From Escherichia phage vB_Eco_J-01: 64,000 nt of DNA. The stretch lies in sequence record PQ438393.1. One strand, 5' to 3'. Made by a program: the position numbers and the translations under genes. Numbering within the stretch: the first letter of the stretch is position 1; each line of letters opens with the position of its first letter. Below are positions 41,247 through 45,789 of this stretch, piece by piece. The notes under the pieces are model-generated. The model was given only the letters and a program-made list of their open reading frames with translations. It did not search any database and was not told where the DNA came from.

Positions 41247-41933
41247 TTATTTAACGTGTTTTAGCAATTCAATGTTGGCAGAATAGTTTTCACCACAATT
41301 AGTAACGCTCAACAGTGACCATTTACAAGAGAATACACCTTTTAGATGATCTGGAACACACATCAGCGGAACATAAACTGTTTCTGAATCTTCTGTTTGC
41401 TCTGTTTTGTTAACATTGCAACAAAATGGCAATACATCATCATGAATCATTTTACATTCACTTAAATTATCTAACATATGTGAAACTTGTTCTGAAGTTT
41501 CAAACATTTGTGCTTCATAAGCCAGTGCACCGACCACTTGATAAGCCTCTCCACACAAATCTTCTAGCTCTAAGATACGTTCAGACATAGCTTCAATGAT
41601 GGCTGATCGTGCTTTCACCTTAGTTTCTGCTTCTTTAATTTTCTTCTCAAGTTCTGCAATGTACTTCAGTAGTGCACTAACAACATCTGGAGTATTTTCT
41701 TGATCATCTTGGGAAATTTTTACCAAAGAAGAAGCTGCTTTGCAGCGCACTTTAGGCTCTACGTAACCAAAAGTCATATTTTCCGAAGAAGATTGTTGTG
41801 AAAACCAGTGTTTGTTCGAAGAAAACACAGGTTCATCTTCAAACCAGAACACATCCCCAGTGATATCACGAGCCATGAAATTTGCATTGTCTGGAACTTC
41901 GTAACGATGCCCTTCAAACATAATCTCTTTCAT
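41247..41933 (-). CDS. hypothetical protein with central coiled coil
   Basis: ORF track; GGAGG RBS. Confidence 0.5.
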   Translation of the reverse strand: MKEIMFEGHRYEVPDNANFMARDITGDVFWFEDEPVFSSNKHWFSQQSSSENMTFGYVEPKVRCKAASSLVKISQDDQENTPDVVSALLKYIAELEKKIKEAETKVKARSAIIEAMSERILELEDLCGEAYQVVGALAYEAQMFETSEQVSHMLDNLSECKMIHDDVLPFCCNVNKTEQTEDSETVYVPLMCVPDHLKGVFSCKWSLLSVTNCGENYSANIELLKHVK

Positions 41934-42517
41934 TACACATCCTCCATTTGGAACATCTTCTTGTGGTTAGAATAGATCTGTTTGAAAATCTTGTCAAGGC
42001 GTTCATATGATTCTTTATGCTCTTGTTTCCATCCGTGATTTCGGATTTTATCTGCCAGATCATAAACCTCGCATAAAACTTTGGCAAAGTTGGTATTATC
42101 TATAGCACAAGCCTCAAAACCTTGAACTAAACCCTCTACATCATACCACGTATAGTCAGAGTCACTAGGAGGATTCCCTGCATCGGCTAAACGTTGCCTC
42201 ACCCATTCGATACGTTTTTCATTCAAATGGCACTTACCTTCCCTACATTCTTGTTCTAATTCTTCTTTAGATTCGTTGAATGGGTGAAGGACAGGTAGCT
42301 CTGCTTTTTGCAATTGCTCCAGATATTCTCCTACAATGCGCATAGCTTCACTGTGTGTACACTTTCTACCTGTGTGCCAGTAACGGAAGATACTTTCTGT
42401 TAAACAGATGTTTTTACTAAACATCGCATTGTCTTTAACATTCGATCTATTAACCCAGTCTATATAATATACATAAAACTGCAATAATTCATAACTGCTT
42501 GGTATAATTTTACTCAT
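41933..42517 (-). CDS. hypothetical protein, paralog family A
   Basis: Shares LLQFY, LHPFN and RIEWVRQRL blocks with 43141..43491 and 45424..45789. Confidence 0.5.
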   Translation of the reverse strand: MSKIIPSSYELLQFYVYYIDWVNRSNVKDNAMFSKNICLTESIFRYWHTGRKCTHSEAMRIVGEYLEQLQKAELPVLHPFNESKEELEQECREGKCHLNEKRIEWVRQRLADAGNPPSDSDYTWYDVEGLVQGFEACAIDNTNFAKVLCEVYDLADKIRNHGWKQEHKESYERLDKIFKQIYSNHKKMFQMEDV

Positions 42518-42695
42518 GATCTCTCCTTAATTGTGAAAAATGTTATCGATCAGTATGACTAATAGTACGAGGATAGAAGGGAGCAGGAATAGAAATCTTA
42601 ACATTATGTGATGCGTGTGAGAAGCGGCTTTAGCGCCAGCCGCCAATAAGCCTACTAATCCTACAATAAAGAGCAGTTGTTCAGGGACACCCATA

Positions 42696-42920
42696 TTATG
42701 AAACACTTGGATACTCCGTAAGTTTGGCTAATAGTTGGATATGTGGACACGTAAACTGTTGTCCTGGATAGCGTGAGCTAATATCATCCAGTAAAGCAAT
42801 CACAGCATTGTGCAATGCTTCGTAATCCTCATAATACACCATCTCTCCATTAGGATCTTCAACAATGTCGCAGTGACAAGCGTGAGCAGTACACGCATCC
42901 CATTCCAGACGTTTTACCAT
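42696..42920 (-). CDS. hypothetical protein
   Basis: ORF track; AAGGAGG RBS. Confidence 0.45.
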   Translation of the reverse strand: MVKRLEWDACTAHACHCDIVEDPNGEMVYYEDYEALHNAVIALLDDISSRYPGQQFTCPHIQLLAKLTEYPSVS

Positions 42921-42929
42921 AAATCCTCC

Positions 42930-43148
42930 TTACTCATACATTTGATAAGATACATAACGATTGCAATCAAGTGCGAGAAACTTTTCAGCATCTCTTTGAT
43001 GCTTGAACACAATACACTGTTCTTTTTTAGCTTCACTTTCACGAGCTTCTCTTGCCATATACTCACCTAAACGAATGATACCAGAGAATAACACGTATGC
43101 AAGAATAAGACAAACAGAGATTGCACAGAAAGTTTTAAACTTAATCAT
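42930..43148 (-). CDS. small membrane-anchored protein (paralog of 38212..38436)
   Basis: ORF track 42930..43178; ATG 43148 after GGAGG; conserved C-terminal Cys pattern. Confidence 0.5.
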   Translation of the reverse strand: MIKFKTFCAISVCLILAYVLFSGIIRLGEYMAREARESEAKKEQCIVFKHQRDAEKFLALDCNRYVSYQMYE

Positions 43149-43491
43149 TGTATTCCTCCATATCACGAATACGATCAATCACCCATTGTACACGTTCTTT
43201 GTTAAGGTGTGCAATGCCTAACTCTGTTTCCGTAAAGTAATGTGAGAAATCCGTATTAAACGGATGTAAATGGTTCAAACCCGCTTTCTTAAATTGTTCC
43301 TTCATTTCCTCTCGTACAGAGGATTGGAGCTTTGCTACATTCTCAACATCTTTTATCCAAGCAATATTGTACAAGAAGTCTACAAGACACGTGCAAAGAC
43401 CATAATGCTTTTTGCTAAAGTTTGTATCTTCTTGCTCTAACCACCATTCATAAAATTGTAGCAAATAAGGGCTGCTTTTCATGTTACACAC
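43141..43491 (-). CDS. hypothetical protein, paralog family A
   Basis: Blocks LLQFYEWW, HLHPFN, RVQWVIDRI. Confidence 0.5.
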   Translation of the reverse strand: MCNMKSSPYLLQFYEWWLEQEDTNFSKKHYGLCTCLVDFLYNIAWIKDVENVAKLQSSVREEMKEQFKKAGLNHLHPFNTDFSHYFTETELGIAHLNKERVQWVIDRIRDMEEYND

Positions 43492-43504
43492 TTTATTATT
43501 CTCC

Positions 43505-43804
43505 TTAATGCCAATCTACGATCACTGAATCTACAAAACCCTCTTTGGTGTTTAAAGCATACACCTTACTAAGCCCACGCTCTCGTAGTGCTTCCATAGC
43601 AAGATCAATCAAATCAACTTGGCGTTTCTTTGCTTGTTCATTTGTCGGATAGTCATCCAAACCGAAAACAGATGGTTTAAATGCTTTGGAGTATTTGCCA
43701 GTCTTAGCCTGATCATAACAGTCCTGAATAACTTCATCAATAGGAAACCATAAACCTTCTCCACTTTGCTTTGCAATACAACGCAGTTTTTCTGTAACAG
43801 TCAT
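43505..43804 (-). CDS. hypothetical protein
   Basis: ORF track; AAAGGAGAGG RBS. Confidence 0.5.
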   Translation of the reverse strand: MTVTEKLRCIAKQSGEGLWFPIDEVIQDCYDQAKTGKYSKAFKPSVFGLDDYPTNEQAKKRQVDLIDLAMEALRERGLSKVYALNTKEGFVDSVIVDWH

Positions 43805-44469: not shown

Positions 44470-44480
44470 TACACAAATCC

Positions 44481-44663
44481 TTATTGTTCAAGAGTAAGAG
44501 GAATGATCTCACCATAGCTGTGTTGCATTTGCATGGCATCCACTTCTGCTTCTGCACGTTGTGCTAGTTCTAATGTTGCACAGATCTTGTAAGGTACAGT
44601 GCTGCATTGGTTCCAGTCTAGGGTATTCTTTGTTACTAAGTACACAGTAGTTTGTTTATCCAT
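44481..44663 (-). CDS. hypothetical protein
   Basis: ORF track; AGAGGAA RBS. Confidence 0.4.
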   Translation of the reverse strand: MDKQTTVYLVTKNTLDWNQCSTVPYKICATLELAQRAEAEVDAMQMQHSYGEIIPLTLEQ

Positions 44664-44677
44664 CTTCTTTTCCTCTT

Positions 44678-44893
44678 TTAAACAGTATATTCGTGTGGAA
44701 GGAAAACATAATCTTCTCCTTCAACAACATCAACTACTTCCCACTTCCAGCCAGGTACTTGGCTCATTGTCTTGAATGACACATAAGCAACTCCGCTGTA
44801 AGCGATATCGGCATCTAACATAAGAGGGAAAGCAACATGTGTCAATCCCAGATAACCACAATTATTTTCAATACACACCTGAATGCTTTTCAT
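44678..44893 (-). CDS. hypothetical protein
   Basis: ORF track 44678..44941; ATG 44893 just after upstream TAA. Confidence 0.4.
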   Translation of the reverse strand: MKSIQVCIENNCGYLGLTHVAFPLMLDADIAYSGVAYVSFKTMSQVPGWKWEVVDVVEGEDYVFLPHEYTV

Positions 44894-44894
44894 G

Positions 44895-45353
44895 TTATGC
44901 TCCATTAAAGACGGGGCGTGTAGCATTACGTTCATCATCAACGGTAATAAGGTTTTTCATAACCATAACACCCTGAATATAGCCTAGCCAACGATGGCGT
45001 TTGGTTTCAGACATACCATTACACCCATCCTGAATTTCATTCAACATCCACAGTAGATGGGAAACACCTGTTTCACTAGTATCTGGATCTTCTACAGAAC
45101 TAAGAATAGTTTCATAGCGTTCACAAATTTCTGGGTAGAATTCATAATCCTGTTGTACATCTCGCATTTCTTGAATGAAGTGACGAGCAATAGGTTTTCC
45201 ACGAAAATATTCATTGAGGAAATCAATAACACACATCTCACTGCCTGTCACCACGGAAGGCTTTCCTATGTTAAATTGAACACTCACACCGCATTCTTTT
45301 ACAAGATTATGTACACGCTCCGTGTTAGCAAGATACAAAGCTAAGGTTCTCAT
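44895..45353 (-). CDS. hypothetical protein
   Basis: ORF track; GAGAGGTG RBS. Confidence 0.5.
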   Translation of the reverse strand: MRTLALYLANTERVHNLVKECGVSVQFNIGKPSVVTGSEMCVIDFLNEYFRGKPIARHFIQEMRDVQQDYEFYPEICERYETILSSVEDPDTSETGVSHLLWMLNEIQDGCNGMSETKRHRWLGYIQGVMVMKNLITVDDERNATRPVFNGA

Positions 45354-45423
45354 TTACACCTCTCATTAGTAGTTTGTTATGCGCGATATTGCATATCTTA
45401 TGGAACACAGTGTACAGACATTT

Positions 45424-45789
45424 CTATCCAATGCAAGCATTATTTGCATCTTCGATTCTGTCTTTCACCCACTGCAATCTCTTTGGGTTGGTATGGCAAG
45501 AATGTGTCTTACCTTCATCTTCATAACATAGAAGATCATAATTAAAGGGTAGGAAGGAGGATAGCCCAGCACACGTGAATTGCAGTTTCATCTCTTCCAG
45601 CGTTTTGCTACGAACCATCTTGAAATATTCTATATCTTCTTCCGTAGGTTTTTTCTTTGACATAGTGGTTGCCAGGTAATCCATAAGGCAATTACACAAA
45701 CCAACATTCTCACGATGCATTGAGGAATGATCTTCCATCCATGCTTTGTAAAATTCTAACAGCAGAGGACTGCTAAGAGGAACACACAT
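45424..45789 (-). CDS. hypothetical protein, paralog family A
   Basis: ORF track 45424..45846; ATG 45789 after AAGGAG; blocks LLEFYKAW, FLPFN, RLQWVKDRI. Confidence 0.5.
   Translation of the reverse strand: MCVPLSSPLLLEFYKAWMEDHSSMHRENVGLCNCLMDYLATTMSKKKPTEEDIEYFKMVRSKTLEEMKLQFTCAGLSSFLPFNYDLLCYEDEGKTHSCHTNPKRLQWVKDRIEDANNACIG

Follow-up and report, generated by a model that had tools for sequence, protein, structure and literature searches.

The 64,000 nt stretch of Escherichia phage vB_Eco_J-01 analysed here (PQ438393.1, 'the window') carries three small genes within about 4 kb whose products share short sequence motifs: gA (194 aa, nt 41933–42517), gB (116 aa, nt 43141–43491) and gC (121 aa, nt 45424–45789), all on the minus strand. 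The locus raises the question of whether these genes are truly related and, if so, how the copies evolve and what their products might do. A first-pass annotation of the sequence had suggested local duplication and divergence, giving a diversifying family possibly involved in host interaction or counter-defence. The comparisons described below indicate old duplicates under purifying selection, with gain, loss and shuffling of copies by unequal recombination at the gC site, and they place all three in a widespread phage protein family that includes gp3 of phage N4. As to function, the likeliest guess is that they are putative binding proteins serving early host takeover or counter-defence.

Paralogy of gA, gB and gC

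All three genes were recovered as minus-strand open reading frames (ORFs) where the first-pass annotation had placed them. gA corresponds to gp010 of phage phi92, and 54 phage records carry it with 95% identity or more. The other two are single-domain family members: gB is the orthologue of phi92 gp006 and occurs at every related locus examined, while gC, the first gene inside the left direct terminal repeat (DTR, see below), is the orthologue of phAPEC8 gp244 and of a UAB_1 gene numbered gp001. In BLASTP comparisons gB and gC share 41% identity (E=1e-26), gA and gB share 30% (E=3e-11), and gA matches gC with E=8e-9. Smith-Waterman scores gave shuffle z values of 35.8 (gB–gC), 15.1 (gA–gB) and 13.3 (gA–gC), and none of 1000 shuffles reached the observed score. 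The three motifs originally noticed are present in the order claimed, at roughly residues 10, 75–79 and 100–104: LL(Q/E)FY at residue 10–11, an (H)LHPFN or FLPFN block at residues 74–79, and R(I/V/L)(E/Q)WV(R/I/K)(Q/D)R(L/I) at residues 100–104 of each protein. In gA the similarity is limited to residues 1 to ~115 (N-terminal domain, residues 1–115, nt 42173–42517, minus strand), which also gave the matches to PHROG groups described below. By these alignments the three genes are true paralogues. A hidden Markov model (HMM) built from them was run against all 632 ORFs of 40 aa or more in the window and found no fourth member; the best match after the three had E=0.23.

An AAGGAG Shine-Dalgarno sequence precedes each gene. 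That of gC lies at nt 45796–45801, 6 nt before the ATG at nt 45789, which is the correct start; a longer gC ORF beginning at nt 45846 was rejected. For gB the Shine-Dalgarno sequence is at nt 43501–43506, but the ATG used by its relatives (MQENNKVCNM...) reads ATT in the window (nt 43489–43509), a stretch that is also overlapped by the stop codon of the upstream gene. Because of this replaced codon, translation of gB is likely to begin at GTG 43491, or possibly at ATG 43482. The product is 6–9 residues shorter than in relatives, with the conserved domain intact.

Age of the duplications and selection

The ratio of nonsynonymous to synonymous substitution rates (dN/dS) was estimated by the Nei-Gojobori method for orthologue sets from 5–8 genomes; substitutions were few, and the ratios are approximate. 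Values of 0.12, 0.08 (8 genomes) and 0.24 were obtained for gA, gB and gC, respectively. Between the paralogues dN is 0.65–0.87 and dS is saturated, and conserved orthologues exist for each of the three separately. Since orthologue ratios are low and dS between paralogues is saturated, the three genes are best described as old duplicates under purifying selection. The suggestion of local duplication and divergence was therefore correct, the duplications being ancient. The term 'diversifying family' holds in part: the ratios give no sign of positive selection on substitutions, which corrects the view that the family evolves in that way, while the copy number of gC does turn over and its alleles are mosaic.

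Copy number and recombination at the gC site

Among phages whose flanking sequences are at least 95% identical, the number of tandem copies at the gC site is 0 (phi92, PHB05, VEcB, SD2, PaulScherrer), 1 (window, JLBYU50, UAB_1, JohannJBalmer), 2 (Eryne, PATM, A150 group) or 3 (one IMG/VR Phapecoctavirus contig). Across GenBank phages a gC query matched 470 places in 168 records, with 1–8 copies per genome, and the gC product is 100% identical to that of JohannJBalmer/Bas62 over residues 1–120. By this distribution gC is an accessory gene, whereas gB and gA are fixed genes under purifying selection.

The window allele is the product of one such rearrangement. By blastn, window nt 45950–45461 corresponds to nt 7256–6767 of Eryne (copy 1, 98.0% identity), while nt 45474–45304 corresponds to Eryne nt 6271–6100 (the tail of copy 2 and its downstream flank, 94.8%). 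A three-way alignment of the junction, together with the blastn matches, places the crossover within the W-V-K-D codons, at TGGGTGAAAGA (nt 45461–45471, minus strand), 11 nt that are identical in both tandem paralogues of Eryne. Upstream of this sequence gC follows copy 1 and downstream it follows copy 2, so that the gene is a chimera of a copy-1 body and a last-copy tail; relative to Eryne, it represents a 496-bp in-frame deletion by unequal recombination. Phage phi92 keeps only the last ~55 nt of gC as a 3' remnant, and its breakpoint lies near the same C-terminal motif as the window crossover. Segment-wise clustering of 20 alleles pointed to further mosaics, joined at GLC (P0013), PLSS (P0008), EM..QF (P0021) and LQWVKDRI (P0009), these four joins being seen at the protein level only. 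The pattern shows that unequal homologous recombination among the paralogues alters both copy number and allele make-up at this site, and that crossovers fall in short nucleotide identities encoding the conserved motifs PLSS, GLC, EM..QF and LQWVKDRI. Gain, loss and shuffling of paralogues in an array at a phage genome end can in this case be followed down to an 11-nt crossover, with conserved motifs as the joints.

In poxviruses, 'gene accordions' change the copy number of host-antagonist genes by recombination. The gC site is similar in that tandem copies at a genome end grow and shrink in number by unequal recombination, here traced at the nucleotide level, but its copies are old and diverged (~40–50% amino acid identity) and not fresh amplifications. 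Because the copies are diverged, recombination between them yields chimeric alleles and not only a change of dosage. A second difference is that poxvirus accordions antagonise the host, an activity that is only putative, by analogy, for the phi92-like array.

gA as a gene fusion

The N-terminal domain of gA is the most divergent of the family and lacks the otherwise 99% conserved cysteine of the GLC motif (C33). The C-terminal domain (residues 120–194 plus the stop codon, nt 41933–42160, minus strand) is unrelated to the family domain. In phage phAPEC8 the two halves correspond to adjacent, separate genes: by BLASTP, phAPEC8_0041 (108 aa) matches gA residues 7–112 (E=2e-12), and phAPEC8_0042 (75 aa) matches residues 120–193 (E=4e-6). 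Because both halves exist as separate neighbours in that phage, gA (phi92 gp010) is a gene fusion that unites a family domain and a 75-aa protein. The fusion predicts that the two are linked in function or by physical contact and nominates the 75-aa protein, which likewise carries no annotation, as a partner. The C-terminal domain gave weak matches to PHROG groups 24126, 8348, 12188 and 25020, all of them function-unknown; there is no second copy in the window, and a word-indexed homology search with this domain returned no candidates.

A different arrangement was seen in P0005 (166 aa), found on one 7.8-kb contig, where the gA N-terminal domain (to ...RLADAG) is joined to the last 50 aa of the ORF at nt 40108–40551. 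It is a natural deletion variant, in which the gA C-terminal domain and ~1.9 kb of intervening genes are gone and the remaining parts are joined in frame at a short identity.

A widespread protein family that includes N4 gp3

All three proteins match function-unknown phage groups of the PHROG database: gA matches phrog_27059 (E=1.7e-139) and phrog_2510 (E=2.9e-17), the latter is also matched by gB (E=2.1e-25) and gC (E=9.9e-23), and phrog_6418 is matched by all alike. An exhaustive HMMER search recovered 943 representative clusters at E<=1e-3 (255 at E<=1e-10), mostly of 100–120 aa, whose source names are all 'hypothetical' or 'DUF551 domain-containing'. Other architectures include proteins with two or three domains in tandem, prophage members extended by long stretches at the N-terminus, and a natural fusion of DUF551 to the family domain (P0074, phage Av-05). 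The gp3 ORF of an N4-like phage (L009, nt 453–812, annotated gp3 [Escherichia phage N4]) matches the family HMM over profile positions 21–125 (E=5.5e-16), and the family therefore includes N4 gp3. Another N4-like contig has the family gene flanked by homologues of Gp1 and Gp2, and in the T7-like Rhizobium phage RHEph09 members are found at the left end, as gp03–gp04. Further members occur in phages of Pectobacterium, Achromobacter, Burkholderia, Delftia and Klebsiella, in one jumbo phage, in one phage carrying Ter-cluster genes, and in the P22-like Salmonella phage GE_vB_TR, where the gene sits in the ea region between Ead_Ea22/DUF4014 and DUF551/integrase.

Multi-copy families of this function-unknown kind are common in phage early regions, and in this respect the finding is ordinary. 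Its interest lies in uniting ~940 sequence clusters in one family that is absent from Pfam; N4 gp3 and phi92 gp006 and gp010 are among its members. None of gA, gB and gC matches a Pfam family at E<=1, Ead_Ea22 (PF13935) and DUF551 (PF04448) included, and none of the 84 diverse members scanned gave a Pfam match above threshold. No NCBIfam model matches the three proteins, nor does any PADLOC-DB HMM at E<=0.1. Scans of the fusion proteins against Pfam, NCBIfam and PADLOC gave nothing above threshold for the family domain, with DUF551 appearing only as a separate domain in P0074. An IMG/VR locus scan returned 3 loci, a word-indexed homology search with a broad profile gave no new annotated relatives, and a profile search of genome contigs with a prophage-type alignment gave no relatives. 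In the searchable literature no described function was found for N4 gp3 or for PHROGs 2510, 27059 and 6418, and nothing relevant emerged on early genes of Stephanstirmvirinae, anti-defence in Phapecoctavirus or the transcriptome of phAPEC8.

Near-invariant residues (gB numbering) are S7, L10, F13, Y14, G31-L32-C33, E62, Q66-F67, L72, P77-F78, N97, R100 and W103-V104. Over the 84 diverse members, which come from phages of alpha-, beta- and gamma-proteobacteria, R100 and Y14 are conserved in 100%, C33 in 99%, and E62, Q66 and N97 in 96% each. The family is mildly acidic, with a median isoelectric point (pI) of 5.2 and a net charge of -4. The structure prediction called for by the first-pass annotation gave, with AlphaFold2, a six-helix model of gB (predicted local distance difference test, pLDDT, 87.9; predicted template modelling score, pTM, 0.82). 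The domain, cytoplasmic and of ~110 aa, is thus predicted with confidence to be all-helical, with six helices. No relative was found in the PDB, either by profile-sequence search or by fold comparison of the predicted model. A family predicted with this confidence and lacking a solved structural neighbour offers a defined target for functional work in N4 and in BASEL phage Bas62.

Two members deserve separate mention. In Escherichia phage Bas79 (L010, PQ850629.1) the plus strand encodes a clear family member at nt 3890–4291 (E=5.5e-16), a site where the record instead annotates a minus-strand gene, Bas79_0090 (nt 4025–4528), which is probably mis-called. P0022 (176 aa) carries an N-terminal extension of ~50 aa resembling two transmembrane helices, a hint that some members may act at the inner membrane.

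Possible functions

The dN/dS values and the gB model mark gA, gB and gC as real, selected proteins. The reading preferred here, although held at somewhat below an even chance, is that they are immediate-early proteins that use an invariant polar patch to bind a conserved component of the host or of its defences, with a variable segment setting specificity. Under this proposal they would be accessory proteins made immediately after infection, the timing being suggested by gene position, and would act stoichiometrically on some part of the host or its defences that Proteobacteria have in common. The contact would involve a putative family-invariant patch (S7, Y14, C33, E62, Q66, N97, R100, W103), while the variable segment between helices 3 and 4 (residues ~37–60) would determine what is bound; for this reason several diverged copies might be kept and reshuffled.

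Position makes a role in host interaction or counter-defence plausible, as the first-pass annotation had supposed: the genes are the first inside the left DTR, and relatives elsewhere occupy the early regions of N4-like and T7-like phages and the ea region of a P22-like phage. N4 gp3 and its Schitoviridae homologues offer the closest comparison. They belong to the same family (profile match above; tblastn), are of the same size, and likewise stand among the first genes at the left genome end, in the early region. They differ in that N4 has one family copy and the window three, and in that N4 early genes are transcribed by an injected virion RNA polymerase, while phi92-like phages presumably use the host polymerase. 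In phage T7 the first gene at the genome end, 0.3, encodes Ocr, a small acidic early anti-restriction protein. The likeness to the window genes is one of position only; family members are also found in the class I region of T7-like RHEph09. The window proteins are mildly acidic (pI ~5.3), unlike the strongly acidic DNA mimics, and showed no sequence or fold similarity to PDB entries, among which Ocr would be counted. With the lambdoid ea-region genes (Ead_Ea22 PF13935, DUF551 PF04448, DUF4014) the connections are the GE_vB_TR member placed among them, the P0074 fusion, and the 'Eaa-like' label given by the phi92 annotators to genes just downstream of gA. Nevertheless, gA, gB and gC match none of these Pfam families, which are themselves function-unknown. 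Annotation of the window genes just downstream of gA as Ea22/DUF551, following JLBYU50 and phi92, was also considered; two of these neighbours had no match to the families in Pfam at E<=0.01 and the assignment was dropped.

Several observations weigh against the preferred reading. The Pfam, NCBIfam, PADLOC, PDB-sequence and PDB-fold comparisons yielded no relative, nor did the searchable literature, so that no homology, fold, domain fusion or paper directly supports the counter-defence part of the first-pass suggestion; solved anti-defence proteins (Ocr, ArdA, Acb2, Tad1/2 and others) in particular showed no sequence or fold similarity via the PDB. Early timing comes from position alone: a promoter scan was no better than chance (39 seen against 38 expected from shuffles), and no transcriptome bearing on early expression of family genes was found in the searchable literature. 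Cargo for counter-defence is less typically fixed throughout a genus, as gB and gA are. A model of tandem-fused domains, made to see whether they pack rigidly as a proxy for dimerisation, reached a pTM of 0.63, so that oligomerisation is not supported. Finally, near-invariant polar residues and a 99% conserved cysteine would suit an enzyme or a binder of small molecules no less than an inhibitor that binds proteins.

This last point leads to the strongest alternative, namely that the family consists of small enzymes or small-molecule 'sponges', in which the invariant polar residues (Cys33, His95/Asn97, Glu62/Gln66, Arg100, Tyr14) form a putative active or ligand site, perhaps for a cofactor or a nucleotide used in host signalling, and the paralogues differ in substrate or ligand. 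The conservation of C33, E62, Q66, N97, R100 and Y14 across the 84 members, from phages of such distant hosts, favours it, as do the predicted position of Cys33 at the N-terminus of helix 3 and the natural two- and threefold tandem fusions, a form common among oligomeric ligand binders. Conservation of His95, however, reaches only 69%, and Cys33 is absent from gA, which retains the rest of the motif set; on balance this explanation is considered unlikely. A good deal less probable still is a role as DNA-binding regulators of the early-to-middle transcription programme of the phage. Members lie among early genes and, in an N4-like phage, beside the Gp1/Gp2 transcription factors, but the predicted fold consists of helices only with no beta-wing, and the combination of winged helix-turn-helix, beta-wing and basic surface that marks MarR/PadR-type regulators was not found. 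The acidic character of the family would also be unfavourable for DNA binding, and gC is dispensable in close relatives. That the copies are selfish or neutral DNA, duplicates that are functionally redundant or in decay and play no part of their own, is scarcely credible and largely refuted by dN/dS, since, for all that copy number is highly variable and gC has been lost without obvious consequence in phi92, PHB05, VEcB and others, every orthologue set is under purifying selection (0.08–0.24), the ORFs are intact with strong Shine-Dalgarno sequences, paralogues only 30–41% identical share invariant residues, and the family persists in 943 clusters.

A bolder form of the binding-protein reading, considered rather improbable, is that the N4 gp3-like family is a new and widespread class of immediate-early effectors neutralising a conserved proteobacterial target or signal, and that the phi92-like array shuffles their modules. 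If true, the family would represent a previously unseen helical fold with an invariant Cys/Glu/Gln/Asn/Arg site, its target would be a conserved proteobacterial defence or housekeeping component or a signalling molecule, and the conserved motifs of the leading-end array would double as recombination joints, a built-in source of new specificities.

The genome end and the surrounding gene block

By sequence the window is that of a phi92-like (Justusliebigvirus) E. coli myovirus, the region matching many Justusliebigvirus/Stephanstirmvirinae E. coli myoviruses (genomes of ~146 kb) at 96–97% nucleotide identity. The genome terminus falls within the window (nt 45850–47560). The phi92 and UAB_1 records annotate positions 1–343 as the left DTR and, because phi92 nt 1–565 aligns to window nt 46438–45876 (97.3% identity), the left DTR (343 bp) can be placed at nt 46096–46438 and the physical genome end at ~46438. 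Beyond it, ~1.1 kb of non-coding sequence is rich in A and T and contains numerous short repeats, both direct and inverted; in an assembly joined into a circle, this stretch is equivalent to the right genome end. All three paralogues are thus at most ~4.5 kb from the left end, with transcription running away from that end.

They are part of a block of small, tightly packed minus-strand ORFs (nt 34000–45789), equivalent to phi92 gp001–gp027 and presumed, from the ORF list, GC skew and Pfam negatives, to be an early operon. GC skew is positive over 1–34 kb and negative over 34–46 kb; its sign changes at ~34 kb, where a block of plus-strand genes meets the early block on the minus strand. Genes for small membrane proteins lie between gA and gB (nt 42527–42706 and 42930–43148). 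None of 10 genes neighbouring the paralogues gave a Pfam match above threshold, and Rfam and tRNA scans of the window found nothing.

The best matches to the region, at 97–99% over 6 kb, are MG065639, MG065656, MG065645 and MG065689, deposited as 'Campylobacter phage A150/C3/A145/A110a'. Their identity to an E. coli phi92-like phage makes the Campylobacter jejuni host label look doubtful.

The window also contains motifs resembling the E. coli Fur box (consensus GATAATGATAATCATTATC): 5 matches were found at <=3 mismatches against 0.04 expected. Such motifs lie at nt 46347–46365, 47240–47258, 57778–57796 and 57831–57849, with weaker copies at nt 46136–46172 and 47294–47313, and an intergenic array near 57.8 kb (nt ~57765–57880) holds at least 5 overlapping units. 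The motifs could be promoters of the phage that respond to iron or Fur, a decoy for Fur, or a phage operator merely resembling a Fur box. One is situated within the DTR, upstream of gC; in 7 related loci its 16-nt core, equivalent to phi92 DTR positions 77–92, is exactly conserved.

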